Shown here: piece by piece, positions 1,621 to 37,299 of the stretch
Layout of the letters: every line of letters starts with the position of its first letter
Numbering within the stretch: the first letter of the stretch is position 1
Source: Acidimicrobiales bacterium
GTDB lineage: Bacteria > Actinomycetota > Acidimicrobiia > Acidimicrobiales > SZUA-35
Reading direction: 5' to 3'
Assembly (NCBI GenBank): GCA_965262175.1
Contig: CBDHES010000002.1
Location: forward strand, 1,248,315-1,312,314
DNA length: 64,000 nt
Position numbers and translations under genes: made by a program
Notes under the pieces: model-generated
Databases searched by the model: none
The model's input: only the letters and a program-made list of their open reading frames with translations
Told to the model about the DNA's origin: nothing

Positions 1621-2055
1621 CCAGCCCAAACCGGTGACGTGAAACAAGGGGCTGTCGGTGGAGACAACGACGTCGTATGATGGACGGTGAAGCTTTGGAT
1701 CTGGGGACCCCCAAGGCACCGCCATCGACCCGGGTGACCACCCGGGAACAACCGGCAACCCGCCGGGGTTCCCTCCTCTGAAGTCGCCAGTTCTACGGCG
1801 GTCGGGCCTGTCGCCCTACCCATCCCTCCGTGGTCCGACCGCCGTATCTCTCACACCGGGCGCCACTCCGCATCGATCGGGGTGGCGCCCGGAGCGGTTC
1901 CACGCCAGGGTGCTCCGGCCCACTACCGTGCGGTGACGGCTCACCCGATCGGCGCAATTCTTCGATGAAGATGACGAGAGCGGCGAAAAGGGGCAGAATC
2001 TGGTGCCCTCGTTCACGGGGCACCCGTCAACCACAGGGTAGGTAAAGGAGCGTTC
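1621..2055 (+). promoter_or_regulatory. Long 435-nt intergenic leader upstream of the CoxL-family gene, lower GC than the flanks, with several stable hairpins; candidate structured 5' UTR
   Basis: Hairpins seen include cccggg-tgacca-cccggg, ggcgcca...tggcgcc and cggagc...gctccg. An SD-like GGTAAAGGAG sits about 6 nt before the ATG at 2056. No coding frame with protein-like composition is present. Confidence 0.3.
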
Positions 2056-4359
2056 ATGGCAGCACAGGGCTCGATCCTCGGTAACTCGGTTCTTCGGCGA
2101 GAAGACCCGGCCCTCCTGACGGGTGGCGACACGTACTACGACGACATGAAGGTCGAGGGGCTGACGTACGTCCACTACGTCCGCTCCCCCTTCGCCCACG
2201 CCACCATCGACGGCATCGACGTCGCCGAGGCGTCGGGCATGCCCGGCATCGTGGCGGTCTACACCTCGGAGAACTTCGACGTCCCGGACTTCCAGGGCTT
2301 CCCGATGTTCCCCGCCGAGTTCAACCGGCCCTGCCTGGCCAAGGGCAAGGTCCGCTTCGTCGGCGACATCGTGGCCGCCGTCGTGGCCGAATCCCGCGAG
2401 GCGGCGGCCGACGCCGCCGAGGCGGTCATCGTCGACTACTCCCCCCTCCCCGCGCTGACCGACATGACCAAGGCCCTCGACGCCGACGCTCCGGTCCTGT
2501 TCGAAGCCGTCGGCTCCAACATGGTGATGCCCTCGATGCTCCCCGCCGAGGGCTTCGACGATGCCGACCCGCTGGTCGGCGCCGACCGCGTCGTCGAGGT
2601 GACGATGGAGTCCCAGCGCCTCGCCGGCGTGCCGATGGAGCCCAACGGCTGCGTGGCCATCCCCTCCGGTGACTCGATGGACATGTGGGTCTCGAGCCAG
2701 AACCCGATCGCCATCAAAGAGGTCTACGTCGGGATGACCGGCATCGCCGAGGACAAGCTCCGGGTCGTCGCTCCCCCCGCCGTCGGCGGCGGCTTCGGCC
2801 CCAAGGCCGGCGTCTACGTCGAGCACATCCTGGCCATGAAGGCCGCCCAGACCCTCGATCGCCCGGTCAAGTGGACCGAGGAGCGGAGCGAGAACATGGT
2901 GGCGATGATGCAGGGGCGGGGCATGGTGATGACCGCCAAGCTCGGCCTCAGCAACGACGGCACCTTCGTCGGCATCGACGCCGAGGTCATCGCCGACTGC
3001 GGCGCCTACCCCGGCATCGGTGGCGTGCTGCCGACCCTGACCCAGATGATGCTCCCCGGCGTCTACGAGTTCCCCAAGATGCGCTACCGCTCGTCGAGCG
3101 TCGTGACCAACACGACCACGATCGGCGCCTACCGGGGCGCCGGCCGGCCCGAGGCGACCCAGATCCTCGAGCGGGTCATCGACGTGGCGGCCGATGAGCT
3201 CGCCATCGACCCCGCCGAGCTGCGGCGGCGGAACTACCTCAAGCCCGAGGCCTTCCCCCTCACCACCCTCGGCGGGGCCAACTACGACTCCGGCGAGTAC
3301 GAGAAGACCCTCGACGCGGCCCTCCAGGCCTCCGACTATGCGTCGCTGCGGACCGAGCAGGAGCGGCGTCGGGCCGCCGGCGAGACCAAGCAACTCGGCA
3401 TCGGCGTCTCGACCTACGTCGAGGTCACCGCCCCGATCGGCCTCCACGTCGAGTGGGGTGCGGTCGAGGTCACCGAGGACGGCACCGCCGTCGCCCGGGT
3501 CGGCACCAGCGCTCACGGTCAGGGCCACGTCACCGCCTTCTCGATGATCGTGTCGGACATGCTCGGCATCCCGATGGAGAACGTGAAGCTCATCCAGTCC
3601 GACACCGACGAGATCCCCCGCGGTCAGGGCACGATGGGCTCGCGGTCGCTCCAGACCGCCGGCTCGGCGGTCCACGTCGCCAGCGAGACCGTCCTCGGCA
3701 AGGCCAAGACCCTCGCCGCCCACCTGCTGGAGGCCAACGAGGACGACATCGTCGTCGGCGACAACGGCCTCCAGGTCGCCGGTACCCCGACCTCGAACGT
3801 GTCGTGGGCCGATCTCGCCAAGGCCGCCAACGACGACTCGAAGCGGCCGGCCGGCATGGAGCCCGGCCTCAGCCACGAGCTCGACTTCGACGGTCAGGAC
3901 GCCACCTATCCCTTCGGCAGCCACGTCTCGGTGGTCGAGGTCGACACCGAGACCGGGGCGGTCGAGATGCTCCGCCACTTCGCGGTGGACGACTGCGGCC
4001 GGATCCTCAACCCGATGCTGGTCAACGGCCAGCAGCACGGCGGCATCGCCCAGGGTGCGGCCCAGGCGCTGTTCGAGGTCGTGGCCTACGACGCCGACGG
4101 CAACCCGATCACCTCCAACCTGATGGACTACGCCATCCCGTCGGCGGCCGAGCTGCCGTCGTTCGATGCCTCCAACACCGAGACCCCCAGCCCCCGGAAC
4201 CCCATGGGAGCCAAGGGCATCGGCGAGTCGGGCACGATCGGCTCCACCCCGGCGATCCACAACGCGGTGGTCGACGCCGTCTCCCACCTCGGCATCCGCC
4301 ACATCGACATGCCGCTCACCGCCCAGCGGGTGTGGGCGGCGATCCAGAACGCCCGCTGA
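2056..4359 (+). CDS. Xanthine dehydrogenase/aerobic CO dehydrogenase family molybdopterin-binding large subunit (CoxL-like, form II-type active-site loop)
   Basis: 767 aa. It carries the GAYRGAGRPEA motif typical of non-CO CoxL homologs, not the form I VAYRCSFR loop. An aldehyde-oxidase/XDH a/b-hammerhead region and a MoCo-binding region are recognisable. No CoxM or CoxS partner genes are adjacent. Confidence 0.85.
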   Translation: MAAQGSILGNSVLRREDPALLTGGDTYYDDMKVEGLTYVHYVRSPFAHATIDGIDVAEASGMPGIVAVYTSENFDVPDFQGFPMFPAEFNRPCLAKGKVRFVGDIVAAVVAESREAAADAAEAVIVDYSPLPALTDMTKALDADAPVLFEAVGSNMVMPSMLPAEGFDDADPLVGADRVVEVTMESQRLAGVPMEPNGCVAIPSGDSMDMWVSSQNPIAIKEVYVGMTGIAEDKLRVVAPPAVGGGFGPKAGVYVEHILAMKAAQTLDRPVKWTEERSENMVAMMQGRGMVMTAKLGLSNDGTFVGIDAEVIADCGAYPGIGGVLPTLTQMMLPGVYEFPKMRYRSSSVVTNTTTIGAYRGAGRPEATQILERVIDVAADELAIDPAELRRRNYLKPEAFPLTTLGGANYDSGEYEKTLDAALQASDYASLRTEQERRRAAGETKQLGIGVSTYVEVTAPIGLHVEWGAVEVTEDGTAVARVGTSAHGQGHVTAFSMIVSDMLGIPMENVKLIQSDTDEIPRGQGTMGSRSLQTAGSAVHVASETVLGKAKTLAAHLLEANEDDIVVGDNGLQVAGTPTSNVSWADLAKAANDDSKRPAGMEPGLSHELDFDGQDATYPFGSHVSVVEVDTETGAVEMLRHFAVDDCGRILNPMLVNGQQHGGIAQGAAQALFEVVAYDADGNPITSNLMDYAIPSAAELPSFDASNTETPSPRNPMGAKGIGESGTIGSTPAIHNAVVDAVSHLGIRHIDMPLTAQRVWAAIQNAR

Positions 4360-6975: not shown

Positions 6976-7500
6976 ATGGCCGTGACGCTCGACGCCGACC
7001 CCGACCGAGAACACCACGGGGCCGACGAGCGGGCACGAGAGATCGAGGCGGTTCTCGACGCCATGGAACACGCCGCCCCCGGAGCCAGAGCCGAGCACCT
7101 CGCCGGGGTCTACGTCTTGAACCGCCCCCACAGCCTCCATCAGCTGATCCAATCGATGCTGCTCCAGGCCGTGGCCGCCGTGCTCCCGCCGGCCGAAGCG
7201 GTCGTGACCGACTGCCGGGTCCGAGACGACACCATGTGGCTCGTGCCCGACCTGATCGTCGCCCCCCGGGTCCTGCTTGCCGAGGCGAAGCCGCAGCTGG
7301 AACCGGGCGAGGTGTCGCTCGTCGTCGAGATCCTGTCCCCGTCGACCGAGGCCACCGACCGCGGCGCCAAACGAGCCTTCTGCCAACGGCACCGAATCGA
7401 CTACTGGCTCGTCACCCCCACCACCGACGGCTGGACCCCGATCGAGCACCACCCCTACGGGGGCGGCACGATCCCGCCACCGGCCCCGCCGAACCCCTAG
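6976..7500 (+). CDS. Uma2 family (DUF820) PD-(D/E)xK restriction-endonuclease-like protein, paralog A
   Basis: Core reads VPDLIV...VVEILSPST...GAK...IDYWLV, matching the Uma2 D/E-K core. The real start is probably ATG 6976 (MAVTLDAD); the table ORF begins earlier at 6586. Confidence 0.6.
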   Translation: MAVTLDADPDREHHGADERAREIEAVLDAMEHAAPGARAEHLAGVYVLNRPHSLHQLIQSMLLQAVAAVLPPAEAVVTDCRVRDDTMWLVPDLIVAPRVLLAEAKPQLEPGEVSLVVEILSPSTEATDRGAKRAFCQRHRIDYWLVTPTTDGWTPIEHHPYGGGTIPPPAPPNP

Positions 7501-7517
7501 CCGGTACCCTCGACGAC

Positions 7518-8051
7518 ATGGCCGTGACGCTCGACGCCGACCCCGACCGGGAACACCACGGGGCCGACGAGCGGGCACGAGAGATCGAGGCGGTTCTCGA
7601 CGCCATGGAAGACGCCGCCCCCGGAGCCAGAGCCGAGCACCTCGCCGGGGTCTACGTCTTGAACCGCCCAGGGATCGTCCATCAGGCCACCGTGGCCGCG
7701 TTGATCGTCGCCCTCCGGCCCCTCATCCCGGCCGATCGGCGGGTGCTCCCCGATGTGCGGGTCGGCGCAGGAGAGGCCTGGATCGTGCCCGACCTCATCG
7801 TGGTGAGCGAGGCGACGGTGGCCGCGGCCCGGACGCCGGTCGAGCCCGGCCAGGTCGACCTCATGGTCGAGATCCTGTCCCCGTCGACCGAAGCCACCGA
7901 CCGCGGCGCCAAACGAGCCTTCTGCCAACGGCACCGAATCGACTACTGGCTCGTCACCCCCACCACCGACGGCTGGACCCCGATCGAGCACCACCCCTAC
8001 GGGGGCGGCACGATCCCGCCACCGGCCCCGCCCGTCGACCCGAGCACCTGA
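7518..8051 (+). CDS. Uma2 family (DUF820) PD-(D/E)xK endonuclease-like protein, paralog B (tandem mosaic duplicate of A)
   Basis: The first ~55 aa and last ~58 aa are nearly identical to paralog A at both nucleotide and protein level. The central ~65 aa diverge. Confidence 0.6.
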   Translation: MAVTLDADPDREHHGADERAREIEAVLDAMEDAAPGARAEHLAGVYVLNRPGIVHQATVAALIVALRPLIPADRRVLPDVRVGAGEAWIVPDLIVVSEATVAAARTPVEPGQVDLMVEILSPSTEATDRGAKRAFCQRHRIDYWLVTPTTDGWTPIEHHPYGGGTIPPPAPPVDPST

Positions 8052-24159: not shown

Positions 24160-25152
24160 ATGTCGGACATCGAGCACGGATCCCTCGACACCAACGGGAT
24201 CACCATCCACTACGCCAGCCAGGGCGACGGTCCCCTCGTGGTGCTCTGCCACGGCTTCCCCGAATCGTGGTACTCCTGGCGCCATCAGCTCCCCGCACTG
24301 GCCGAGGCCGGCTACCGGGCGGTCGCCCCGTCGATGCGGGGCTACGGCAAGACGAGCGCCCCGACCGAGATCGAGCACTACTCGCTCCCCTACCTCGTCG
24401 GCGACATGGTCGGCCTGGTGCAGGGGTTGGGCGAGTCGTCGGCGGTGATCGTCGGCCACGACTGGGGCGCGCCGGTCGCCTGGTACTCGGCCCTGATGCG
24501 CCCCACCGTGTTCCGAGCCGTCGCCGGGCTCAGCGTGCCGGTGACCCCACCGATCGGAGGCCTGCCGGAACCGATGACGGTCAACGACCTGATGCGGCTG
24601 GAGGCGGGCGACGACCGGGACTACTACCGCCTCTACTTCCAGGAGCCGGGCAAGGCCGAGGCCGAGCTGGAGGCCGACATCGAGGCGTCGGTCCGGGGGT
24701 TCCTCTACACCATCTCCGGCGACGCGGTGGCCAACGGCGACCGGGCGACGCCGTGGGACGGTCACTTCCCGGCCGGCGAGCGGGCGGTCGACCAGCTCAT
24801 CGTGCCCGACACGCTCCCGCCGTGGCTGACCGACGATGACGTGGCGGTCTACGTCGAGGAGCTCAGAGCAAGCGGCTTCCGGGGCGGGCTGAACTGGTAC
24901 CGCAACATCGACCGGCTCCCCGGGGCGCTCGCGCCGTGGGTCGGCGCCACCATCGACCAGCCGTCGCTCTACATCGGCGGCTCGGCCGACCTGATCGCCG
25001 GCAACACCCCGGAGGCGATCGCCACCATGCAGGGGACGTTGGGCGACCTGCGCCACTGCGAGGTCATCGAAGGCGCCGGACACTGGATCCAGCAGGAGCA
25101 CCCGGAAGCGGTCAACGCGGCGTTGATCGCGTTCCTGGCCGGTCTCGGGTAG
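24160..25152 (+). CDS. Alpha/beta hydrolase fold protein (epoxide hydrolase/haloalkane dehalogenase-like)
   Basis: HGFPESWYSWRHQ, nucleophile elbow GHDWGA, and a C-terminal GAGHWIQQE catalytic His region. Confidence 0.85.
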   Translation: MSDIEHGSLDTNGITIHYASQGDGPLVVLCHGFPESWYSWRHQLPALAEAGYRAVAPSMRGYGKTSAPTEIEHYSLPYLVGDMVGLVQGLGESSAVIVGHDWGAPVAWYSALMRPTVFRAVAGLSVPVTPPIGGLPEPMTVNDLMRLEAGDDRDYYRLYFQEPGKAEAELEADIEASVRGFLYTISGDAVANGDRATPWDGHFPAGERAVDQLIVPDTLPPWLTDDDVAVYVEELRASGFRGGLNWYRNIDRLPGALAPWVGATIDQPSLYIGGSADLIAGNTPEAIATMQGTLGDLRHCEVIEGAGHWIQQEHPEAVNAALIAFLAGLG

Positions 25153-26068
25153 CGCCACCGGGCTCCGGCGGACCGTCGACGACCTTGCGGATCTCGCCGG
25201 TGATCACATCGGTGATCACGTCGTTGATGATCGACCGCCGGGCCCGGGAGATCCCCCATCGCTGACCGAGGACGTGGTTGACGGTCCCCCCGATCAACAG
25301 GACCTGGGCCGACAGCCAGATCCAGGTCAGGGCCAGGAGGCTGGCGCCGACCGCCGCGGTGACGTCGTTGGCTCCCGAACTCAGCGAGATGTACCACCCG
25401 TAGCCGCCCGACAGCAGGCGCCACAGCACCGCGGCGGTGATGGCGCCGGGGAGGTCGTACCGCCAGGCGCTGCGCCGCGACGGCCCGAAGTGCAGCAGGG
25501 TCGAGGCCCACGCCACCAACACCGCCATCCCGGCCACCCATCGGGCGCCGTCCTCGAAGATCCCGTCGGGGAACCGGTCCCACACCAGCCGATCGAGGAC
25601 CACCAGACCGACCGGCACCGTCAGGCTGCCCAGGCCGAGCAGGGTGGCCACGATCCGGGTGTGATACCAGGCCCGCCCGTGCTCGATCTCATAGATGTCG
25701 TCGAGGGCCCGCATCAACCCGGCGAAGCCTCGTCCCACCGACCACACGGCGACCAGGATCGAGACGGCCAACAGGCCGGAGTTGGGCCGCTGGTCGAACA
25801 GCGCCCCCACCGTGTCCTGCACGCCGCTGGCCTCGGCGGTGAACACCCGGGCCACGAAGGCCCGCACGTCGTCCTCGATCTCGGCCTGGAAGCCGATGCT
25901 GGCCACCCGTTCCAGGGGTCGGAGGGCCGCCAGGAGCGCGAGGGTGGCGGCGGGGAGCGAGACGAGAATCCAGAACGTGACCCCGGCCGCCAGATCGCCG
26001 ACCCCGCCCCGATACCAGCGCACGGCGACGGCGACGACGACATGGCGTACCGCGGCGAGACGCTTCAC
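25112..26068 (-). CDS. YihY/BrkB (virulence factor BrkB, formerly RNase BN) family membrane protein
   Basis: Six TM helices and a YihY-like pattern (GVTFWILVSLPA, AVLWRLLSGGYGWY). A GTG start at 26068 overlaps the stop of the upstream giant gene (GTGA). The table ORF extends further, to 26200. Confidence 0.7.
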   Translation of the reverse strand: MKRLAAVRHVVVAVAVRWYRGGVGDLAAGVTFWILVSLPAATLALLAALRPLERVASIGFQAEIEDDVRAFVARVFTAEASGVQDTVGALFDQRPNSGLLAVSILVAVWSVGRGFAGLMRALDDIYEIEHGRAWYHTRIVATLLGLGSLTVPVGLVVLDRLVWDRFPDGIFEDGARWVAGMAVLVAWASTLLHFGPSRRSAWRYDLPGAITAAVLWRLLSGGYGWYISLSSGANDVTAAVGASLLALTWIWLSAQVLLIGGTVNHVLGQRWGISRARRSIINDVITDVITGEIRKVVDGPPEPGGATRDRPGTRSTPR

Positions 26069-29000
26069 CCTGTCGAGGATGGACCGTGCCGGAGGGCCAC
26101 CGCTACCTCCTCGATCGCCGCCACCACCCGGGTGGTGGGGTCGCGATCGTCGCCCCCGAGACGTTGCTGGCGCCGGAACGTGGCGACGATGTCGTCCCAC
26201 CGCTCTCGGCCGGCGCCGTCCAGCCGACCCCGGAGCTCGTCGAGCTTGAGCAGGTTGGCCTCGGCGGCGCCGGTCAGCGACTGGGACTCGGCGAGGTAGT
26301 GCTCGTCGATGATCGCCTCCACTTCCGCCTCGGTCATCGCCGGGAGCAGCTTCGACGCCATCCGGACCATGTTGCGATAGGAGCCCTGGAGGAGGAACGG
26401 GGGCTCGGTCCGGTAGCGATCGTCGGTGGCGGCCGAGGCGATGTACTGCCGGTTGACCGCCAGGACGACCGCCTGAACCCGGCGGAGGTGGGCGATGACG
26501 GCGACGACCTCCCCCAGCTCGGCCGACGAGTAGGCGTGGGTCAGCCGGCTCTCGTCGACGTCGGCCAGTCCGGCCCGGAGCAACTCGTCGAGATCGGCCC
26601 GGTCCCGACCGACCAACGGCGCGAGGATCGGGTTGGCCCCGAGGGCGTTCTCCAGATAGCTGCGGGCGAAGAGCTCGTCGTTGCCGGACACCACGTCGCC
26701 GAGGTTGTAGGTGTCGGCCCGGTTGGCCAACATGTCAGGCACCCGGAACCGCTCGCCCGACTCGGTGTAGGGGTTGCCGGCCATCACGACGGCGAACCGC
26801 TTGCCCCGGAGGTCGAAGGTGGTCGCCTCGCCGTCGATGACCCCTTCGATCCGCCGCTGGGCGTCGCACAGCGAGATGAACCGCTGGAGCAGCTCGGGGC
26901 TGGTGTGCTGGATGTCATCGAGGTACAGCATCACGTTCGATCCGAGGGCGAAGGCCAGGTTGATCCGCTCGATCTCCCGGGCTGCGGTGGCGCTCGGGGC
27001 CCGGGCCGGATCGAGCGACGTGACCTCGTGGCCCAGGCCGGGGCCCGACACCTTGACCAGGGCCATGCCCAGGCGGTCGGCCACGTAGTCGACCAGGGTC
27101 GTCTTGCCGTAGCCGGGGGGCGACAGCAACATCAACAGGCCGCTCCGGGCTCCTGACGCGTCGTCGACGGTGCCGATCTGGCGGGCCAGGTTGTCGCCGA
27201 TCAACGGGAGGTAGATCCGGTCGATCAGCTGGTTGCGGACGAAGCCCTCGGGAACCCGGGGTTGGAGGTCGTCCAGTCGATAGGTGGTGGCCAGCCGCGC
27301 GAGGACCGCCCGTCGGGTGGCGGTGAACGCCCGGTGGGCGGGGATGGACTCGTGGCGGTGGTCGTCGACCGCGGCCAGCAGCTCGTCGACCCGGACCGCC
27401 AGCCGGCCGTCCGAGATCGTCGGGTGCTGACCGGCCAAGCCGTCGACGGCGACGGCCAGGTCGACGTCGATCGACCGTCGGGCCAGTTCGGGGGTGACGA
27501 GCTCGGTGACGACGTCGTCGACCAGCTCCGGGGGACAGTCCCGGGCGACGTAGCCGGCGATCAGGGCCCGGGTCCCGTCGGGGTCGGCGTCGAGATGGGT
27601 CAGGGCGGCGGCCACCGCAGCCTGTCCGGCGACCTCGACCGCTCGGGCCGAGGCCAGCCCGGGGCGGGCGAAGACGGGGCCACCGCCGCCGGTGGCTCCG
27701 GCCGGGGCCGGGACGACCAGCTCGGCCATCAGGTACCGGGCGTCGGTGGGGGCCAGGTCGACGTCTCGGCGGAGGTCGTCGGCCAGCTCGGCGATCGCCT
27801 CCGGGCCGACGTCGAGCTCGGCTGCGGCCCGACCCCGGGCCGCCCAACGGGTCCGGGCGGCGTCATCGAGGTGGCGGGCCCAGGCCCAGATCGCTCGGCT
27901 CCGGGCCGCGGCGGTGGTCACCAGGGGCCCGGCGGCCAGCGCCGGGCCGGCCAGGGCGGTCAACAACCGGGCCGCGTCGAGATCGTGGACGCCTCGGTCA
28001 TAGCCCTCGTCGAGCCGGTGGTCGACCGCGTCGCGGACCAGTCGCAGGGCGGTCTCGCTCGGGTCGGCCCCTCGACCGTCACCCCCGGCCACGGCCTCCA
28101 GGACGTCCCGTCCCTCCGGGGCGGGCCGACGGAGCAGGTCGAGGAGGAGGTCTCCGGCCAGGAACGCCGCCCGGTACAGCGCCGGGGTCTCCGATGGCAG
28201 CGGCCGATCCCACAGCTCCCGATGCCCGACCAGGTCGGGGTCGTCGACCGCGACCCGGAGGTCGGTGCCCGACAGGACCGCTTCGAGCCGGTCGCCGTCG
28301 TTGACCACGGTCAGCTCTCGGGGCCGGCTCTCGACGCTGAACCGGTGCCGGCCGAGGCGGATCGCGTCCCCGTCGTAGAGGTCGATCCGGTCCCGGACCG
28401 CCCGGAGGGCGCCGTCCCGGACGGCCCCCAGTCGAGACTGGAGCTCGTCGGCCCGGACCGGCTCGCCCAGGTCCCGGAGCTGGTCGACCAGGCTCCGGAC
28501 CCGTCCCACCATCGGGTCGGCGGCGAAGAACCCGTTGACCTCGTCGACCCCGGGGAGGTCGGCGCCCCGATCGGCGACCCGGTCGAGGGTCCGGGCGCCG
28601 GCCGTCACCAACCGGTCGGCGGTCCGCTGGCGCTCGTCGATCAGCTGCTGGCGCTTTCCCCCGATCGTCTCCAGGAGCTGATCCCGGCGGGCGGCCAGCT
28701 CATCGAGCTGGGCGTCGGTCCGAGGCCCCGAGGATTCGAGCTGCTCCAGCTGGAGGAGCAGGCGGGCCAGGGCGTCGTCGCACGCCTCGGGGGTGTCGAC
28801 CCGGGCCACCACCGCAGCCAGGGTCTGGCCGTAGAGCCCGAGCTCGGTGGCGAAGGCGGCGCCGGTCTCGGCCTCGATCAGGGTCGCGGTTCGCCCTTCG
28901 AGGGCGGCTCGGACCCGGTTCAACTCGGCCAGCACGCCCGACACCTGCTCCAGGACCGCGGTGCGGTCCCGGGGGTCGGCCACCACGAGATCGCCGACGG

Positions 29001-31020
29001 TGGCTGCCACCAGCTCCATGGCGTCGGCGACGCCGTCGAGCTCGGCTCGTACGTCGCCCGCCGCCACCGACGAGTCGATCGCCGGCACCCGGGCCTCGAT
29101 GGCCGCCAGGTCGTCGTGGTAGTGGACGAAGGCTCCGTCGCTGGCCAGGTGCTCGGCCGCCTTGCGGGCCAGGTCATCGTTGGCATCGGTGGCCCGGGCC
29201 ACCAGCGCCGCCACCGCTTCCCCGTCGACCTCCCGCATCTCGGTGATGGTCTGCAGGTGGCCGAGCCGGTCCCGGATGGCGTCGAGGGCGGCGATGAAGT
29301 CCTCGGTCCGGGCCGGCCGGGACCGGCGGAGCTCGTCGAGGAACCGATCGAGGTCATCGGTGGCCTCGGCCACCGCGGCGGCCGCCGCCGCTCGGACCTC
29401 CTGGAGCCGCTCGAACTCGTCGATGACCGCCTCGGCGGCCATGCGGATGTCGTGGACCGGCGCCGCCAGGTCCCCGAAGGCGGTGTCGCCGATCCAGTGG
29501 TGGGTGTCGAGGACCCGGCCGGCCGAGCCGAGCAGGTCGCCGTAGACCTCGACCGAGGGCTCGAGGTCGGCCACCAGCCTGGTGAGCGACAGGGCGTCGG
29601 CGATGCCGGCCACCAGGCCCGGGTTCCCGACCCGGTCGAGGGGTCCACCCCGGCGGTGGTTGTCGGCGTACCAGTCGTCGGAGCAGAACGGTGTCGACCA
29701 GATCTGGACCGGGTGGACCCGGGTCGGTTCGGGTTCCTCCCGGAACGCGGCCATCGTCCCGTCGTCGAACAGGCAGTAGCCGTGGCACCAGATCGGGGTC
29801 GTCACGTCCTGGCGGACCAGGTTGTAGGGCAGGAGGATCGAGCGACCGTCCGACTGCTGGTGGAACACGTAGAGGACGTCCTCCCCGTTCGGGGACCGGA
29901 CGACCTCCAGCAGCTGCATGTCGGTCGGATCGAGGTCGAAGGTCCGGACCTCGCCGGTCCGGAGGTAGATCCCCTCGGGGAAGATCAGACCCTGGCCCTC
30001 GGGGAGCCGACGGAAGGCCTGACCCAGGGCGTCGAGGCGGAGCGCGGTTCGGGTCAGGAGGTTGACCACGAAGTGGCGCCGGGTCTGTTCCCGGTAGGGC
30101 AGCACCCGGATCAGGACCAGGTCGGCGCCGGCCAGGGCGTAGGAGATCTCACAGTCCTGGAGGCTCTGGTCGGCATCGAGCAGCCGTTCCGAGATCAGCA
30201 GCTCGCCGTCGTCGGTGGCGTCGGGGAGACGGAGGTCGAGGGTCCCCCCGAGGGGGTCGACGAAGACCCGACCGTCGATCGCCACGTAGCGGTTGGCGAC
30301 GTGATCGACCCGGGTCGTGGCGGCCCACTCGACGTCCTGGTGCGGGGGAAATCGGTGGTCCCGGTCGCCCCGATCGTCGGCGTAGGCCAGCTCGCCGCCC
30401 GGCCCCACCGTCCACCGCAGGACCCGGATGTCGGTGACCCCGGTCCCGGTCCGGAACACCGCCAGGAGCTTGTCGCCCCGGCGGTAGACCTGCTGGACCC
30501 GAGCGTCCTTGAAGTAGGTGTGGAGCTCGACGAAGTCCCGCCGGAACCGATCGTCATCGAGAGCCGAACCCGCCAGGCCTTCGGGGTTTGGGCTGAGGAC
30601 GATGGTGTCGGTGTCGTCGATCAGGTGGTGGACGCTGAAGACGTCCTCGGGTCGGAGCTCGCCCCGGACCCCGGCCTGGGCGTTGTAGGCCAGCACCATC
30701 TGGTCGCCGACCGCCTCGATGTCGCGGGGGACGACGTTGTTGTCGGTCCGGACCCGCTCCGTGGCCACCAGCTCGAGGTTGGCCGCCCCGTAGGTCTCGA
30801 TCCGCCGCTGGTTGAGGGCCTCGGCCCGACCGGCCAGCTCGGAGGCCGCCGCCTCGAGGCGACCCCGGAGCAGGCGGTAGGTGCTGGCCCCGACGGCGGC
30901 GGGCCCGCCGCCGTCACCGTTGGGGGACGGGTTGGACTCGCCGCCGTCGGCGGCCTCAGCGAGCCCGGCGGCCTCGCCGAGCCCGGCGGCCTCGGCGGCC
31001 GACGCTGCGGTGTCGGCCAT
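26065..31020 (-). CDS. Giant 1651-aa cytoplasmic protein with a C-terminal MoxR/AAA_5-type AAA+ ATPase domain and long predicted alpha-helical/coiled-coil regions; function unknown
   Basis: Walker A LLMLLSPPGYGKTTLV, Walker B VMLYLDDIQ, sensor-1/NP motif FAVVMAGNPYT, and an RFRVPDMLANR arginine region, all in the last ~350 aa. No TM segments. Its start overlaps the flotillin stop (TGATG) and its stop overlaps the yihY start (GTGA). Confidence 0.7.
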   Translation of the reverse strand: MADTAASAAEAAGLGEAAGLAEAADGGESNPSPNGDGGGPAAVGASTYRLLRGRLEAAASELAGRAEALNQRRIETYGAANLELVATERVRTDNNVVPRDIEAVGDQMVLAYNAQAGVRGELRPEDVFSVHHLIDDTDTIVLSPNPEGLAGSALDDDRFRRDFVELHTYFKDARVQQVYRRGDKLLAVFRTGTGVTDIRVLRWTVGPGGELAYADDRGDRDHRFPPHQDVEWAATTRVDHVANRYVAIDGRVFVDPLGGTLDLRLPDATDDGELLISERLLDADQSLQDCEISYALAGADLVLIRVLPYREQTRRHFVVNLLTRTALRLDALGQAFRRLPEGQGLIFPEGIYLRTGEVRTFDLDPTDMQLLEVVRSPNGEDVLYVFHQQSDGRSILLPYNLVRQDVTTPIWCHGYCLFDDGTMAAFREEPEPTRVHPVQIWSTPFCSDDWYADNHRRGGPLDRVGNPGLVAGIADALSLTRLVADLEPSVEVYGDLLGSAGRVLDTHHWIGDTAFGDLAAPVHDIRMAAEAVIDEFERLQEVRAAAAAAVAEATDDLDRFLDELRRSRPARTEDFIAALDAIRDRLGHLQTITEMREVDGEAVAALVARATDANDDLARKAAEHLASDGAFVHYHDDLAAIEARVPAIDSSVAAGDVRAELDGVADAMELVAATVGDLVVADPRDRTAVLEQVSGVLAELNRVRAALEGRTATLIEAETGAAFATELGLYGQTLAAVVARVDTPEACDDALARLLLQLEQLESSGPRTDAQLDELAARRDQLLETIGGKRQQLIDERQRTADRLVTAGARTLDRVADRGADLPGVDEVNGFFAADPMVGRVRSLVDQLRDLGEPVRADELQSRLGAVRDGALRAVRDRIDLYDGDAIRLGRHRFSVESRPRELTVVNDGDRLEAVLSGTDLRVAVDDPDLVGHRELWDRPLPSETPALYRAAFLAGDLLLDLLRRPAPEGRDVLEAVAGGDGRGADPSETALRLVRDAVDHRLDEGYDRGVHDLDAARLLTALAGPALAAGPLVTTAAARSRAIWAWARHLDDAARTRWAARGRAAAELDVGPEAIAELADDLRRDVDLAPTDARYLMAELVVPAPAGATGGGGPVFARPGLASARAVEVAGQAAVAAALTHLDADPDGTRALIAGYVARDCPPELVDDVVTELVTPELARRSIDVDLAVAVDGLAGQHPTISDGRLAVRVDELLAAVDDHRHESIPAHRAFTATRRAVLARLATTYRLDDLQPRVPEGFVRNQLIDRIYLPLIGDNLARQIGTVDDASGARSGLLMLLSPPGYGKTTLVDYVADRLGMALVKVSGPGLGHEVTSLDPARAPSATAAREIERINLAFALGSNVMLYLDDIQHTSPELLQRFISLCDAQRRIEGVIDGEATTFDLRGKRFAVVMAGNPYTESGERFRVPDMLANRADTYNLGDVVSGNDELFARSYLENALGANPILAPLVGRDRADLDELLRAGLADVDESRLTHAYSSAELGEVVAVIAHLRRVQAVVLAVNRQYIASAATDDRYRTEPPFLLQGSYRNMVRMASKLLPAMTEAEVEAIIDEHYLAESQSLTGAAEANLLKLDELRGRLDGAGRERWDDIVATFRRQQRLGGDDRDPTTRVVAAIEEVAVALRHGPSSTG

Positions 31021-32981
31021 CAGTCCTCGGCGGAGTGGCCGATCCGCCGAAGCAGGTCGGCCACGGTCAGATCACGGATGCCGTCCGACCCCAGGCCGGC
31101 GATCGCCTCGGCCAGGGTCGCCACGAGGTCCTTGTCGCCGTTCTGATAGGGGCCGAGGACGCCGGTCGCCACGTTCGACGACTCGACCAGCCCGTCGAGC
31201 CGCTTGCCGTTGCCGATGGCTCCGATCAGGGAGTCGACGAACATGTCGGAACCGCCGACGATGTCGATGTCGGCCGCTTCCAGACCGGCCTTGAGGGCCT
31301 CGGCCTGGGCGGTTGCGACCCCGATCGAAGCATCGACCTCGGCCAGGCGGACCTGGGTGTCGGCGTCCAGCTGGCGGATGAACTCCTCGTGCTCCCGCCC
31401 GACGCCCTCCAGCTCCTTCATCGCCTGGGCCTTCTCGGCCAAACCGCTCGCCTCGCCCCGCAGCTTGGCCTCGATGACGGCCGCCTCGGCGAGACCGGCC
31501 TCCCGCAGCTTCAGCGCCTCGGCCTCGCCGACCTGGCGGATGGCGGTGGCTCGGGCTTCCTCGACCTTGACGTCGGCCAGGCCCAGCTTCTCGTTGGCCA
31601 CCGCGGCGGCCTCCTGCACCTCGACCTCGGCCAGCCCGGGGGCCGCCGTCTCGGCCTGGATACCCTCGGCCCGCTTGATCTGGGCCTGGGCGGCGTAGTC
31701 GGAGGCCTCCAACTCGGCCTTGGCGAGGACGATCTGCTCGTTGGCCATGTGGGCGGCGGCCGATTCGGCGGCTTCGGCCGCCTTGATGTCCTTCACCAGG
31801 GCCGCCTGGGCGTCGGCCTCGGCGCTGATGATGACCGAGTCCCGCGAGCGGTTGGCGTCCTCGACCACCCGGAGGGTCTTGATCTCCTCCTCCTGGACGG
31901 CCACGGTCTTCTCGACCGCCACCCGGTCCCGGCGGATGTCGGCGATGGCCGACTTCTCCTCTTCAAGACTCTTCTCGGCCGACAGGGTTTCGACCCGGCG
32001 GCTCATCTCCTCGAGCTCCCGGGCCTTCTCGACCCGCTCGTGCTCGATGGCGATGACCCGCTCCCGGTTCTTGCCGGCGACGTCGATCTCCCGCTGGAGG
32101 TTCTCCCGCTCGATGCCGAGCTTCTGCTCGACCTCCAGCTTCGCCATCTCGGTCTTGAGCCGCTCCTCGGCCTCGACCTGGGCGGTGGTCGCCTCCTCCC
32201 GGAGCCGGACCGAGGTGACCTCACGGGCGTGGCGGGACTCGGCGTCGGCCTGCTGGCGCTCCAGCTCCAACACGGCCTCGCGGGTCTCGACGTTCTTGGC
32301 CGTGATCTGCTTCTGCTCGTCGTTCGACGCCACGTTGGTCGCCACGTGTTCGATGGCCGTCAACTCGGTGATCTTCCGGATGCCCTGGGCATCGAGGATG
32401 TTGTCCTCGTCGAGCTGCGAGAGCGGGGTCTGCTCGAGGTAGTCGATGGCCACGTCCTCCAGGGCGTAGCCGTTGAGGTCGGTGCCGATGACCGAGATGA
32501 TCCGGTCCCGGAACATGGCCCGCTCGGTGTACAGCGAGACGAACTCCATCTGCTTGCCGACCGTCTTGAGGGCCTCGGAGAACTTGGCGGCGAACAGCTC
32601 CTCCAGGGTCACCGGGTCCGACGCCCGCTCGGTGCCGATGGCCTGGGCGACCTTGATGACATCTTCCTCGGCCTTGTTGACCCGGACGAAGAAGTTGACC
32701 TTGATGTCGGCCCGGATGTTGTCCTGGCAGATCAGACCCTCCCGGCCCCGCCGGTCGATCTCGATCGTCTTGACCGAGATGTCCATGATCTCGGCCTTGT
32801 GGAGGATCGGGACGACGACCCGGCCGGTGAACGACACCAGGACCCTGCGGGTGGTGCTGATCACCATCGCCTTGCCCTGGGGGACCTTGCGGTACAGCCG
32901 GGACACGGCGAGCCCGACCGCGAGCACGACCGCCAGCAGCACCAGCACCGCGACGACCACCGTGATGATGATTGGATTCAT
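31020..32981 (-). CDS. Flotillin family (SPFH/band 7) protein, YqiK/FloT-like
   Basis: N-terminal TM helix, an SPFH domain, then a long Glu/Ala-rich coiled-coil typical of flotillins (EAEERLKTEMAKLEVEQKLGIERENLQREI). Real start ATG 32981 within table ORF 31020..33380. Confidence 0.85.
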   Translation of the reverse strand: MNPIIITVVVAVLVLLAVVLAVGLAVSRLYRKVPQGKAMVISTTRRVLVSFTGRVVVPILHKAEIMDISVKTIEIDRRGREGLICQDNIRADIKVNFFVRVNKAEEDVIKVAQAIGTERASDPVTLEELFAAKFSEALKTVGKQMEFVSLYTERAMFRDRIISVIGTDLNGYALEDVAIDYLEQTPLSQLDEDNILDAQGIRKITELTAIEHVATNVASNDEQKQITAKNVETREAVLELERQQADAESRHAREVTSVRLREEATTAQVEAEERLKTEMAKLEVEQKLGIERENLQREIDVAGKNRERVIAIEHERVEKARELEEMSRRVETLSAEKSLEEEKSAIADIRRDRVAVEKTVAVQEEEIKTLRVVEDANRSRDSVIISAEADAQAALVKDIKAAEAAESAAAHMANEQIVLAKAELEASDYAAQAQIKRAEGIQAETAAPGLAEVEVQEAAAVANEKLGLADVKVEEARATAIRQVGEAEALKLREAGLAEAAVIEAKLRGEASGLAEKAQAMKELEGVGREHEEFIRQLDADTQVRLAEVDASIGVATAQAEALKAGLEAADIDIVGGSDMFVDSLIGAIGNGKRLDGLVESSNVATGVLGPYQNGDKDLVATLAEAIAGLGSDGIRDLTVADLLRRIGHSAED

Positions 32982-32998
32982 GGTTCCCCTCTCTTGCG

Positions 32999-33616
32999 CT
33001 ATCGCAGGACGTCGACGTCGGGTGACACCAGGAACACCCCGTCGTCGACGTCGACGACGAGGGCCCGATCGCCCGAGGCGAGTTGGTTGCTGTCGAGGCA
33101 GCGGATCTGGACGAGGTGCGAGCCACCATCGGCGTCGGTGACCTCCCCCTGACCGAAGCCGGCATCGACCCGGCCGGTTCGCACGGTGCAGATACGACCG
33201 ACGAGGTCGCGATGCCCGGGGGGCGAGGGGGGCGAGAAGATCGGGCCGAGCACCTGGCCGACGCGGCCGGCGATGATCACGCCGACGATCAGGGCCACGA
33301 CGAGCGTGACGACGCCGACGGCAAGGCCGACGGCCCCGTCGACGCCGATGGCCAGCGACGCGATCGTGGTGATGACCCACCCGACGAGCGAGATGACGGT
33401 GACCACCAGGCTGAGCGGCATCAGGTGCAGATCGAGGCCGGTCAACAGCGCCCCGAAGCCCCCGACGCCGTCGCCGTCGAGCTCCACGCCACCGTCGGCG
33501 TCGCCGCCCTCCATGCCCAGAGCCGAGGTGACCGCCCAGTAACAGAGCGACACGGCGAGGGCGACGGTGAACACGACCGCGGGAAAGCTGGTGATCGCTG
33601 CCAGGAACTCGGTCAC
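32999..33616 (-). CDS. NfeD-like (YqiJ/YuaF-type) membrane protein with a C-terminal OB-fold, flotillin partner
   Basis: Three to four TM helices, then GRICTVRTGRVDAGFGQGEVTDADGGSHLVQIR...GDRALVVDVDDGVFLV, an NfeD-type beta-barrel motif. Immediately upstream of the flotillin gene, as in yqiJ-yqiK and yuaF-floT. Confidence 0.65.
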   Translation of the reverse strand: MTEFLAAITSFPAVVFTVALAVSLCYWAVTSALGMEGGDADGGVELDGDGVGGFGALLTGLDLHLMPLSLVVTVISLVGWVITTIASLAIGVDGAVGLAVGVVTLVVALIVGVIIAGRVGQVLGPIFSPPSPPGHRDLVGRICTVRTGRVDAGFGQGEVTDADGGSHLVQIRCLDSNQLASGDRALVVDVDDGVFLVSPDVDVLR

Positions 33617-33775: not shown

Positions 33776-34462
33776 ATGGGACCCCGATCCCCGTTCACCA
33801 ACCGCCGGGCCGGCGAGGCGTTCCTCGTCGACCCCCCGGGCGGCGTCCAGGGTCCCGGCGTGCTGGTCCTCCACAGCTGGTGGGGCCTCAACCAGTGGGT
33901 GCGGGACTTCTGCCGCCGGCTGGCCGCCGAGGGCTACACGACGTTGGCCCCCGACATGTTCGATGGGGTCCAACCGATGACCGAGGCCGAAGGGGAGGCG
34001 GTGCTGGCCGGTGTCGACCCCGACGAGCTGTCGGGTCTGGTGATGTCGTCGGCCCACACGCTCCGGGCCGCGACCGCCAAACCCGATCGACCGATCGCGG
34101 TGGTCGGGTTCTCGATGGGAGCGTCGCTGGCGTTGTGGCTCTCGGCCCGGTTGACCACCGCCATTCGGGCCGCGGTGGCGTTCTACGGTGCCCAGTCGAT
34201 CGACTTCGACGCCTCGAATGCCATCTATCAGGGCCACTTCGCCTCCGATGATCACATCGTCAGCGACGACGACCGTGTGACCACCGAGGCGTTCATCCGC
34301 CTCGGTGGTCGTTCGACCGAGTTCTTCCTCTACGAGGGCACCCGTCACTGGTTCTTCGAGGATGGCAAGACCCACGACCCCGAGGCCGCCGAGCTGGCCT
34401 GGACCCGCACGATCGAGTTCCTCGACCGGCACCTCACGATCGATCTGACCGACCCGGCGTGA
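33776..34462 (+). CDS. Dienelactone hydrolase family protein
   Basis: VLVLHSWWGLN, nucleophile GFSMGAS, and a C-terminal His region. Real start ATG 33776 within the longer table ORF. Confidence 0.8.
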   Translation: MGPRSPFTNRRAGEAFLVDPPGGVQGPGVLVLHSWWGLNQWVRDFCRRLAAEGYTTLAPDMFDGVQPMTEAEGEAVLAGVDPDELSGLVMSSAHTLRAATAKPDRPIAVVGFSMGASLALWLSARLTTAIRAAVAFYGAQSIDFDASNAIYQGHFASDDHIVSDDDRVTTEAFIRLGGRSTEFFLYEGTRHWFFEDGKTHDPEAAELAWTRTIEFLDRHLTIDLTDPA

Positions 34463-36366: not shown

Positions 36367-37299
36367 ATGTCATCGTCGCCGGTGCTCATCCAGGCCCGAG
36401 GGGTCACCAAGAGCTACGGCCGGCACCGGGTCCTGGAAGGGGTCGACTTCGACATCGCCGAGGGCGTGACCGGGCTCCTCGGGGCCAACGGCAGCGGGAA
36501 GACGACCCTGCTGGGCATGATCCTCGGCCTCCACCCGGTCGACGACGGCTCGCTCCGGGTCTACGGCCGCGACCCGTGGTCCGACGGCGCCGAGGTGCGG
36601 GCCCTGACCGGCTACGCCCCCGAGCACCACACGTTGCCACCCGATCTCCGGGCCGACGAGTTCGTCCGCCACATCGCCGAGCTGCACGGGCTTCCGCCGG
36701 CCGAGGCGACCACCCGAGCCAGCGATGCCCTGTGGTTGGTCGACCTGGGCGAGGAGCGGTTCCGTCCGCTTGGCACGATGAGCACCGGGCAACGCCAGCG
36801 GGTGAAGCTGGCCCAGGCCATCGCCCACGACCCTCGCCTGGTCCTCCTCGACGAGCCGACCGACGGGCTCGACCCGGTCCAGCGCCACGCCATGCTCGAG
36901 TTGATCAGGAAGGTGGCGATCGGGTTCGGGATCAACGTCCTGCTGTCGTCCCATCTGCTCGACGAGGTCGAGCAGATCTGCGACAACGTCGTCATCATCG
37001 GCGAGGGCAAGGCGCTGGCGTCGGGAGCCCTGGCCGACCTCCAGGGCGGATCGGAGGGCGAGCTGACCCTGGTCGTCGACGGTACCGAAGGCCAGGTCCA
37101 GGCGGTGGTCGACCACCTCCTGGCCCGGGGGCTGGCCGTCGACGTGTCGGGCCGTCACCTGTCGATCACGATCGGCGACGACCTCGACGCCGCCCTCGAC
37201 GTGGCCCGTGACGCCTGCGTGACCGCCGAAGCCGGCATCGTCCGGCTCGGTCGGAGTCGGCTCAGCCTCGAAGATGTCTTCCTGGAGCGGCTGGGATGA
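36367..37299 (+). CDS. ABC transporter ATP-binding protein
   Basis: Walker A GANGSGKTT, signature STGQRQRV, Walker B LVLLDEPTDGLD, and an H-loop. Confidence 0.85.
   Translation: MSSSPVLIQARGVTKSYGRHRVLEGVDFDIAEGVTGLLGANGSGKTTLLGMILGLHPVDDGSLRVYGRDPWSDGAEVRALTGYAPEHHTLPPDLRADEFVRHIAELHGLPPAEATTRASDALWLVDLGEERFRPLGTMSTGQRQRVKLAQAIAHDPRLVLLDEPTDGLDPVQRHAMLELIRKVAIGFGINVLLSSHLLDEVEQICDNVVIIGEGKALASGALADLQGGSEGELTLVVDGTEGQVQAVVDHLLARGLAVDVSGRHLSITIGDDLDAALDVARDACVTAEAGIVRLGRSRLSLEDVFLERLG

Follow-up and report, generated by a model that had tools for sequence, protein, structure and literature searches.

At the bacterial cytoplasmic membrane, SPFH-family scaffolds can be coupled to AAA+ machines, as in the HflK/HflC-FtsH complex, where an SPFH cage surrounds an AAA+ protease. 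The function of bacterial flotillins is still debated, single flotillin mutants often being mild, and we know of no AAA+ partner for any flotillin. MoxR-type ATPases characteristically have a partner with a VWA domain and serve a defined client enzyme. The closest described relatives of the locus considered here are the two-gene SPFH2-NfeD2 operons yqiJ-yqiK of E. coli and yuaF-floT of B. subtilis (Hinderhofer et al., 2009, PMC2636767) and a longer operon outlined in mSystems (Ravi et al., 2024, PMC11237479), in which a YqiJ/YuaF gene is followed by a Band-7/flotillin gene and by the gene of an ATPase with a beta-propeller, a coiled coil and an AAA+ domain, with or without a CesT/Tir-PspA pair. 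Abbreviated operons without PspA were reported there to be “more widely distributed”, and the ATPase was given one sentence, with no AAA+ clade, linkage count or specific mechanism. The ATPase is mentioned neither by Hinderhofer et al. (2009) nor in a 2026 survey of SPFH proteins of P. aeruginosa; our literature searches found no experimental study of any member of the flotillin-ATPase operon, and nothing relevant on DUF3686/PF12458 or on flotillin together with DNA repair ATPase or MoxR.

The window analyzed in this work, a 64,000-nucleotide stretch of an Acidimicrobiales contig, carries the following block of genes:

32999..33616, minus strand: NfeD-like membrane protein of putative YqiJ/YuaF (NfeD2) type, 205 aa, from its open reading frame and translation
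32982..32998, minus strand: spacer of ~18 nt between the stop of the NfeD-like gene and the flotillin ATG, with a Shine-Dalgarno-like GAGAGGGGA, read directly from the sequence
31020..32981, minus strand: flotillin-like, putative SPFH protein, 653 aa
26065..31020, minus strand: giant soluble AAA+ ATPase of the DUF3686 family, 1651 aa, named “DNA repair ATPase” in databases
25112..26068, minus strand: polytopic membrane protein of the YihY/BrkB family, 318 aa

The four reading frames lie where the initial annotation had placed them and are chained as it claimed: past the 18-nt spacer, the TGA of the flotillin-like gene and the start ATG of the giant gene have one base in common (TGATG), and the TGA of the latter overlaps the GTG start of yihY/brkB (GTGA). 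The block is flanked by a divergent dienelactone hydrolase gene upstream and a convergent alpha/beta hydrolase gene downstream, and a scan of the operon for promoters and terminators gave nothing above shuffled controls. The order of YqiJ/YuaF-like, flotillin and ATPase genes on one strand is that reported by Ravi et al. (2024), and in keeping with the ATPase architecture given there, the window protein, as modelled, runs from a helix at aa 47-77 through a beta-rich domain and a helical region to a C-terminal AAA+ module. The window differs from the full form of that operon in lacking the CesT/Tir (YjfI)-PspA pair, and from the operon in general in its translationally coupled YihY/BrkB gene, which is absent from that paper. 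A profile made only of five gammaproteobacterial PspA sequences detected no PspA in the window, nor in the loci from outside the Gammaproteobacteria. Because the CesT/Tir-PspA pair was not found, the window operon appears to fit the PspA-less “abbreviated” form, and since both the operon and this form were described by Ravi et al. (2024), the view that the locus represents an undescribed system had to be given up.

As in the yqiJ-yqiK and yuaF-floT pairs, the gene of a short NfeD-like membrane protein immediately precedes that of a flotillin-type SPFH protein, which is anchored at its N-terminus and has an E/A-rich coiled coil; in difference to these pairs, both window proteins are too divergent for Pfam thresholds alone. 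In the NfeD-like protein, several hydrophobic segments of the N-terminal part (aa 2-128) are followed by a beta-rich domain of ~60 aa at the C-terminal end (aa 138-196), and the protein shares with the NfeD2 (YqiJ/YuaF) proteins the multi-pass N-terminal membrane region and the gene position directly 5' of a flotillin-type SPFH gene. Its match to YqiJ_OB was weak (E = 0.004, 17.5 bits at a Pfam cutoff of 25.4), those of its orthologs to YqiJ_OB or YqiJ_N were all sub-threshold, and its profile gave no meaningful match among PDB sequences; the alignment of the NfeD-like proteins (A5) revealed a conserved motif, G-R-x-C-T-V-R-T-G-R-V...F-G-Q...V-Q-V-R...G-D, in the beta-rich C-terminal part. The flotillin-like protein consists of a membrane anchor made by one N-terminal hydrophobic segment (aa 1-31), a divergent SPFH region, a coiled coil (aa ~231-565, 59% E/A/K/R/Q) and a conserved C-terminal tail. 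It gave no Pfam match, even at E = 10, and nothing meaningful among PDB sequences, also with a profile. Homologs at 58-59% identity, named flotillin, SPFH or YqiK, match PF01145, and this Band_7 model recognized 6 of 24 close homologs (57-74% identity, best E = 1.4e-8); the putative SPFH identity of the window protein rests on these close homologs.

Searches with the ATPase returned more than 2,600 matches, which fall into 574 clusters at 50% identity and, where full-length, measure 1600-1900 aa, and the protein is encoded in at least 584 GTDB species. Flotillin lies directly upstream of the ATPase gene, on the same strand, in all 77 related loci with enough upstream DNA, which makes the ATPase an obligate third gene here, in distinction from the two-gene operons; tblastn found the NfeD-like gene 5' of flotillin in 68 of the 77, and ORF clustering placed it there in 75 loci. 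The linked loci span at least six phyla (Actinomycetota, Myxococcota, Acidobacteriota, Planctomycetota, a Clostridia MAG, Gammaproteobacteria), the identities to the window proteins co-vary (r = 0.87 for ATPase and flotillin, 0.82 for ATPase and NfeD), and with two flotillin homologs as the starting point the ATPase was again found downstream. Throughout these phyla, the core trio has been inherited and ordered as a single unit, and all-against-all ORF clustering of 82 loci gave no conserved partner gene beyond them, including downstream. The same-strand adjacency in 77 of 77 loci across phyla supports a functional tie of the ATPase to flotillin/NfeD. The neighbourhood survey proposed in the initial annotation accordingly confirmed the linkage to flotillin and NfeD and failed to confirm that to YihY, and the situation in which the giant ATPase would normally be encoded away from flotillin/NfeD was not encountered. 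The genes form a conserved three-gene membrane module, to which YihY was appended in this lineage; that its ATPase acts on the flotillin scaffold in membrane maintenance or repair is in our judgement about as likely as not.

The fourth protein matched PF03631 (E = 2.7e-33) and TIGR00765 (68.9 bits, E = 5.8e-19, slightly under the cutoff of 73.15) and has several hydrophobic segments, in keeping with a polytopic topology. Outside the window, its gene stands 3' of the ATPase gene on the same strand in just two loci, those of the closest relatives, L085 (67% identity, gap of ~110 nt) and L004 (62% identity, gap of ~400 nt); no downstream yihY was found in L001, L086 and L087, likewise at ~60% identity, or in 78 more distant loci. 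Because of this restriction to two relatives, YihY is best taken as a lineage-specific neighbour outside the conserved core, as judged from gene order, and not as the component of the system it had been thought to be. In this lineage YihY/BrkB could nevertheless act as a fourth component, a membrane client or effector (e.g., channel-like) of the flotillin-ATPase machine, since the GTGA overlap implies co-translation and the same-strand position recurs in L085 and L004; we consider this unlikely, as the overlap is unique to the window, the gene is missing from all other loci, where no other conserved downstream partner was seen, and other lineages place PLD, TelA or rhomboid genes at the same position.

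The giant ATPase is organized as follows:

29497..30840, minus strand: DUF3686 domain (aa 61-508, E = 1.9e-154), with a long N-terminal helix at aa 47-77 and strands at aa 83-442
27271..29679, minus strand: long alpha-helical region (aa ~448-1250) of helical bundles and solenoid-like repeats, with a small beta insert at aa ~886-925
28888-29133, minus strand: DUF7902 (aa 630-711), inside the helical region
26701..27135, minus strand: AAA+ ATPase core (aa 1296-1440), with invariant sensor-1 N1416, invariant R1434 and a pre-sensor-1 beta-hairpin at aa ~1390-1403
27097-27123, minus strand: invariant Walker A, SPPGYGKTT, with lysine K1306
26905-26931, minus strand: Walker B, MLYLDDIQH, with invariant D1368-D1369
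26068..26700, minus strand: C-terminal helical lid and extension (aa 1441-1651), with the invariant block RTEPPF..QGSYRN

R1549 within this block is a candidate sensor-2 residue, and a scan of the protein for hydrophobic segments found none. AlphaFold2 models of both halves (pLDDT 86-89) show a protein built of a beta-propeller-like head, a helical arm of ~800 aa and one AAA+ module. An origin of the 1651-aa frame by frameshift or assembly error was rejected: the records contain a protein of 1651 aa identical to it, its length and Pfam architecture recur in more than 100 homologs of 1600-1900 aa, and the models are unbroken and confident. The DUF3686 domain models as a divergent beta-propeller-like fold, to which the Foldseek propeller matches were weak. 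The propeller and alpha-solenoid arrangement is loosely reminiscent of membrane-coat and IFT proteins. Several details of the initial annotation are revised by these data. The ~1200 aa said to lack recognizable domains contain both DUF3686 and DUF7902; their description as helical or coiled-coil holds for aa ~448-1250 and fails for the beta-rich aa 83-442; and the arginine of its “RF” motif (R1424) is not conserved, the invariant one being R1434. The modelling suggested there for finding cryptic domains did bring out the propeller-like domain, the helical region and the AAA+ module, the first with the weak matches just mentioned.

The assignment of the C-terminal part to MoxR/AAA_5-type ATPases agrees with the models: the solved structures nearest to the AAA+ module are the MoxR ATPases CbbQ and NorQ, followed by dynein and midasin, which supports a structural placement among MoxR/dynein/midasin-type AAA+ proteins. 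At the sequence level, AAA_5 (PF07728) was matched with 22.3 bits (cutoff 22.0, E = 1.5e-4), a generic AAA model scored higher (26 bits), and matches among PDB sequences, with the protein alone or as a profile, were confined to the P-loop region, so that similarity to MoxR, dynein and midasin proteins is limited to that region. The nucleotide-binding motifs, as compared across the family, are intact and invariant. Every family member has D-D in Walker B in place of the usual D-E, and hydrolysis could therefore be slow or regulatory. From this relationship it might be proposed that the protein is a maturation chaperone for cofactor insertion or assembly of a specific membrane complex, like CbbQ, NorQ and RavA, with flotillin as its platform. 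We find this distinctly unlikely: no VWA/MIDAS protein is encoded in the operon, neither a VWA protein nor any conserved client gene was seen in the window or at ~80 loci, the flotillin and NfeD-like proteins being the sole invariant partners, and the 1,250-aa propeller-plus-helical N-terminal extension, together with a single AAA+ module and the invariant D-D, sets the protein apart from MoxR proteins of ~250-500 aa.

The accessory genes of other lineages point to the envelope. In Gammaproteobacteria, YjfI-PspA precedes the core, and TerB-like, TelA, PLD or rhomboid genes occur in the vicinity: DUF2170 (YjfI) and PspA/IM30 are directly upstream in four loci (L078, L079, L082 and L083), in L053 PspA is accompanied by a weaker DUF2170-like ORF, and on the megaplasmid pQBR103 the module comes after a yjfKLMC-like cluster. 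The full form of Ravi et al. (2024) is reproduced in our Pseudomonas, Lysobacter, Solilutibacter and Pseudoalteromonas loci, including the PLD hydrolase named by these authors. The co-oriented position directly behind the gene of PspA/IM30, the bacterial ESCRT-III, resembles Vps4/ESCRT-III and suggests an AAA+ remodeller near an ESCRT-III-type polymer in Gammaproteobacteria; this analogy has been drawn for PspA-associated ATPases in general (Ravi et al., 2024).

An abortive-infection-type module had also been suggested. In an anti-phage system of this kind, the ATPase would sense infection and the membrane proteins would be the effectors. In favour of this reading, the distribution of the operon over many phyla is patchy, copies are borne by pQBR103 and by Streptomyces and Deinococcus plasmids, in one Pseudomonas locus a hydrolase of the PLD family and an SF1 helicase bearing a restriction-endonuclease-like domain lie downstream, and the ATPase matched LmuB of PADLOC-DB v2 weakly (E = 1e-4), in the coiled-coil region only. 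This match is not meaningful and the other three proteins had none at all, 50,697 phage records contained no match, the core lacks a nuclease, protease, TIR, Sir2 or pore-toxin effector, and the recurrent neighbours are envelope-stress genes (PspA, YjfI, TelA, TerB-like), the window flanks being ordinary hydrolases; a defence function is accordingly improbable. That the protein is a DNA repair ATPase adjoining flotillin by chance is hardly credible, the argument for it being its name (“ATPase involved in DNA repair” for Pfam DUF3686, “DNA repair ATPase” as the NCBI product), for which no paper using or backing it was found, while no DNA-binding, nuclease or helicase domain was detected in the ATPase, the RuvB matches cover ~35 residues round the P-loop only (16 bits at cutoffs of 282-299, E ~0.004) and the gene context is membrane-related in 77 of 77 loci. 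The name “DNA repair ATPase” is not supported here; this misleading label now stands on thousands of database entries.

Returning to the membrane module, the ATPase would most likely be an ATP-driven remodeller of flotillin assemblies, or of their cargo, during membrane stress. Flotillin and the NfeD-like protein would build an oligomeric scaffold at the cytoplasmic face of the membrane, on which the ATPase, probably a ring oligomer like its structural relatives, might dock via the propeller and the helical arm. The flotillin assembly itself, or else proteins or PspA-type polymers located there, might then be remodelled, taken apart or recycled at the expense of ATP, and such remodelling would serve membrane maintenance or repair under envelope stress. 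The role in membrane stress and remodelling, envisaged from the beginning, fits the accessory genes found elsewhere (PspA, YjfI, TerB-like, TelA, PLD, rhomboid). It has the same logic as HflK/C-FtsH, an SPFH-family oligomeric scaffold with an AAA+ machine; in difference to FtsH, the window ATPase has neither a protease domain nor a membrane anchor and is of the MoxR/dynein-like and not the classical AAA clade, and its SPFH partner is flotillin-type with cytoplasmic orientation, whereas HflK/C faces the periplasm. Though alike in logic to both HflK/C-FtsH and Vps4, the ATPase belongs to neither family. Against a remodeller it may be held that the Walker B D-D is compatible with slow or regulatory hydrolysis, that MoxR-class ATPases typically serve the maturation of complexes with VWA partners, which is a different job, that PspA was not detected in the window with the gammaproteobacterial profile, and that the flotillin-like and NfeD-like proteins of the window are below Pfam thresholds.

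More tentatively, and with the balance against it, the DUF3686 protein may be a dedicated flotillin motor: a ring of MoxR/dynein-class AAA+ modules, whose beta-propeller and alpha-solenoid arms would grip the cytoplasmic dome of flotillin/NfeD and, at the cost of ATP, open it, take it apart or change its shape. If so, flotillin microdomains would be actively cycled machines and not passive scaffolds, and might work together with PspA, the bacterial ESCRT-III, in repairing or vesiculating the membrane.

The window's own copy adds little beyond the lineage-specific YihY gene. The operon as a family gives flotillin a strictly linked, predicted enzymatic partner with a mutable Walker A lysine, and its carriers include the much-studied megaplasmid pQBR103 as well as strains of Streptomyces, Myxococcus and Pseudomonas that are experimentally tractable. 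Whether flotillin assemblies are actively remodelled, and for what purpose, is made directly testable by this operon.

The ORF listing and direct translation bore out the arrangement read in the initial annotation, that is, four consecutive minus-strand genes with an 18-nt spacer followed by TGATG and GTGA overlaps. The operon and its surroundings in the window, the G+C content of which is about 71%, are as follows:

33616..32999, minus strand, NfeD-like gene (205 aa)
18-nt spacer, minus strand, between the NfeD-like and flotillin-like genes, containing GAGAGGGGA
32981..31020, minus strand, flotillin-like gene (653 aa), its TGA having one base in common with the next ATG (TGATG)
31020..26065, minus strand, giant ATPase gene (1651 aa), its TGA overlapping the next GTG (GTGA)
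26068..25112, minus strand, YihY/BrkB gene (318 aa)
24160-25152, plus strand, alpha/beta hydrolase gene, converging on yihY with a ~40-nt overlap of the 3' ends
~33818-34462, plus strand, dienelactone hydrolase gene, divergent from the NfeD-like gene
36367-37299, plus strand, gene of an ABC-transporter ATPase with a NIL domain, further upstream of the operon

The operon is bordered by the divergent dienelactone hydrolase gene upstream and the convergent alpha/beta hydrolase gene downstream, and its flanking genes are ordinary. A consensus scan for promoters and terminators of the operon gave no signal exceeding shuffled controls.

The 1651-aa reading frame is genuine: an assembly or frameshift artefact, which the initial annotation had considered, is ruled out by the database record of an identical protein, by the relatives, consistently 1600-1900 aa long with unchanged Pfam architecture, and by confident AlphaFold2 models of both halves (aa 1-800 and aa 780-1651, pLDDT 85.7 and 88.9, respectively). 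Hydrophobicity analysis detected no hydrophobic segments in the giant protein, which is predicted to be soluble. Its ~1200 N-terminal residues had been described as devoid of recognisable domains; this was wrong, as Pfam recognized DUF3686 (aa 61-508, E=1.9e-154) and DUF7902 (aa 630-711, E=1e-18) there, while aa 1296-1419 gave weak matches to AAA and AAA_5. The model of aa 1-800 shows a disordered tip and, at aa 47-77, a long helix; residues 83-442 then form a domain rich in beta strands, which is followed by helical bundles. In the model of aa 780-1651 there are further repeats of helices, along with a small beta insert and a single AAA+ module. Overall, the modelled protein has the shape of a propeller-like head with a helical arm of ~800 aa. 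DUF3686 is best read, at the level of these models, as a divergent propeller-like domain, because Foldseek weakly matched the N-terminal domain to beta-propellers, namely the DCAF1 WD40 domain (E=6e-6, target TM-score 0.40), propeller-solenoid proteins (IFT-A, WDR11), trilobed protease and paraoxonase.

The ATPase belongs to the MoxR/dynein structural class, its catalytic motifs being intact, and the MoxR-type assignment made from the sequence was right. Within an alignment of 16 sequences, with identity down to 28%, the Walker A motif SPPGYGKTT, the sensor-1 residue N1416, the arginine R1434 and the C-terminal block RTEPPF..QGSYRN are invariant (16/16). The Walker B motif (LDDIQH, window 26905-26931), likewise invariant, carries Asp-Asp in all 16 of these diverse members, where AAA+ proteins usually have Asp-Glu. 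The arginine of the ‘RF’ pair singled out earlier corresponds to R1424, which is not invariant in this alignment.

The flotillin-like protein possesses a single N-terminal anchor (aa 1-31) as judged by hydrophobicity, and a coiled-coil region (aa 231-565) composed of E/A/K/R/Q by 59%. It matched no Pfam model and no PDB sequence; its homologs at 57-74% identity bear the names flotillin, SPFH or YqiK, and 6 of 24 such homologs reach PF01145. The NfeD-like protein combines multi-pass hydrophobic N-terminal segments with a beta-rich C-terminal domain and has sub-threshold Pfam matches only, to YqiJ_OB and YqiJ_N. By analogy with the well-established YqiK/FloT and YuaF, the bulk of both membrane-anchored proteins is presumably cytoplasmic. 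The YihY protein is a clear member of PF03631.

Relatives of the ATPase are encoded by at least 584 species, as revealed by a scan in which each GTDB species was represented by one genome and an alignment of diverse family members served as the query. Gene neighbourhoods were compared in the best 80 of these loci, which span Actinomycetota, Myxococcota, Acidobacteriota, Planctomycetota, a Clostridia MAG and Gammaproteobacteria (Pseudomonas, Pseudoalteromonas, Lysobacter, Solilutibacter). A flotillin gene lies immediately 5' of the ATPase gene on the same strand in 77/77 loci whose upstream DNA extends for 2.5 kb or more, preceded by an NfeD-like gene in 68 loci by tblastn and 75 by ORF clustering. 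The identities to the window proteins co-vary (r=0.87 for ATPase/flotillin, r=0.82 for ATPase/NfeD), and the reverse look-up from two flotillin homologs (Streptomyces, Microtetraspora) found the ATPase downstream. The linkage to flotillin and NfeD proposed initially was therefore upheld, while that to YihY was not: yihY follows the ATPase gene only in L085 (67% identity, gap ~110 nt, flanking synteny as in the window) and L004 (62% identity, gap ~400 nt), and is absent from L001, L086 and L087 (~60% identity) and from all the other loci. Since only the two closest relatives share the downstream yihY, and all-against-all clustering of flanking ORFs disclosed no further conserved partner genes, the conserved unit consists of three genes, obligately associated, and YihY is a lineage-specific addition; that it is an integral fourth component in the window lineage appears unlikely.

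Two related loci deviate in their gene calls. The flotillin gene of L085, an ENA metagenome contig and the closest relative at 67% identity, is split by the gene calls into two pieces of 82 and 417 aa (2042-4001), with tblastn matches in different frames; it is a frameshifted pseudogene, or else the contig is misassembled there. In the Acidimicrobiia-like L086, a called 167-aa gene lies between flotillin and the ATPase and overlaps the ATPase start (1400-4008), and the NfeD-like tblastn match (648-1280), upstream of flotillin, coincides with no called plus-strand gene; the gene calls or the gene order are locally unlike those of the window.

Where the window has the TGATG overlap, many related loci have a spacer of 60-260 nt containing a near-perfect GC-rich hairpin of 9-16 bp, mostly 12-16 bp (e.g., CCGGAGCCGCCGCACAGGGGACGGCGGCUCCGG), the MFE values lying between -26 and -49 kcal/mol, for example (locus coordinates):

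~7500-8000, hairpin spacers in L030, L043, L047, L048 and L063 (Streptomyces)
~7500-8000, hairpin spacers in L071 (Planctomycetota), L062 (Pseudoalteromonas) and L083 (Solilutibacter)

In the window, as in about 10 further loci, the stop and start codons overlap instead. The hairpin may act as an intra-operon attenuator or mRNA-stabilising element setting the scaffold-to-motor ratio, and more scaffold than motor would be expected.

Accessory genes were found around gammaproteobacterial loci. In four of these, DUF2170 (YjfI) and PspA/IM30 genes lie directly upstream on the same strand, and a fifth (L053, Pseudoalteromonas) has PspA with a weaker DUF2170-like ORF. The genes downstream of the ATPase are variable, including PLD-family hydrolases, rhomboid and TelA. 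Individual loci carry the following:

L078 ~7550-7790 and L082 ~7560-7830 (Pseudomonas, Lysobacter), small ORF of ~80-100 aa between flotillin and ATPase, with a TerB match below threshold (E=5.8e-5, 23.8 bits vs cutoff 24.4)
L078 13184-17157, rhomboid, PLD-like hydrolase and SF1 helicase with a restriction-endonuclease-like C-terminus, downstream of ATPase
L079 13164-13853, PLD-like hydrolase, downstream of ATPase
L082 14017-15114 and L083 13540-14982, TelA, downstream of ATPase
L084 (pQBR103, NC_009444.1 86507-97641), three-gene module on the P. fluorescens SBW25 megaplasmid

The pQBR103 module directly follows DUF2491, DUF350, DUF1190 and glutathionylspermidine-synthase genes (E. coli yjfK-L-M-C-like); immediately downstream, the other strand carries a gene of the MvaT/MvaU family. 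The ATPase family occurs in 13 PLSDB records.

All the recurrent neighbours are indicative of the membrane or of envelope stress, and not one suggests a part in phage defence or DNA repair. The ATPase could alternatively be a MoxR-style maturation chaperone for some client, but neither a VWA partner nor a client gene was found, and we regard this role as distinctly unlikely. A phage defence module is quite improbable, given that PADLOC returned nothing for the operon but a weak coiled-coil match and that the family was found in no phage record. The annotated function in DNA repair is least credible of all: the product name ‘DNA repair ATPase’, spread across the family (e.g., PQBR_RS00470 and the names of P0042-P0120), was apparently taken from the Pfam description of DUF3686, and the domains and neighbours found provide no support for it.

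The literature search on DUF3686/PF12458, or on flotillin with ‘DNA repair ATPase’ or MoxR, yielded no relevant paper, and neither the classic survey of SPFH/NfeD operons (PMC2636767) nor a 2026 study of P. aeruginosa SPFH proteins mentions the ATPase. Operons of CesT/Tir-PspA with three further genes, one of them for the YqiJ/YuaF 3TM protein, and at times with an additional PLD hydrolase, were described by Ravi, Anantharaman, ... Aravind, Gennaro (mSystems, 2024; PMC11237479), and their Table S3 example from Dokdonia donghaensis has a gene order identical to that of the window. The window operon thus belongs to an operon type already described computationally, and is not the undescribed system it had been taken for.

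We propose that the flotillin-like and NfeD-like proteins would form an oligomeric scaffold on the cytoplasmic side of the membrane, on which the ATPase, probably a ring oligomer as in its structural relatives, would dock via the propeller and the arm, spending ATP to remodel or recycle either the scaffold itself or the clients or PspA polymers that it retains, in the course of membrane maintenance or repair. In our estimation, this reading has an even chance of being correct. Its logic parallels that of HflK/C-FtsH and ESCRT-III-Vps4, although the window ATPase is in neither family, lacking a protease domain, an MIT domain and a membrane anchor and falling into another AAA+ clade. Of the initial interpretation, the linkage, the class assigned to the ATPase and the membrane-related theme stand, whereas the novelty, the part given to YihY and the lack of recognisable domains do not. 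The system has already been noted in print, and the only contribution of the window instance to it is a local YihY gene; the linkage of the module is unusually strict, and through its ATPase flotillin biology becomes cleanly accessible to experiment.
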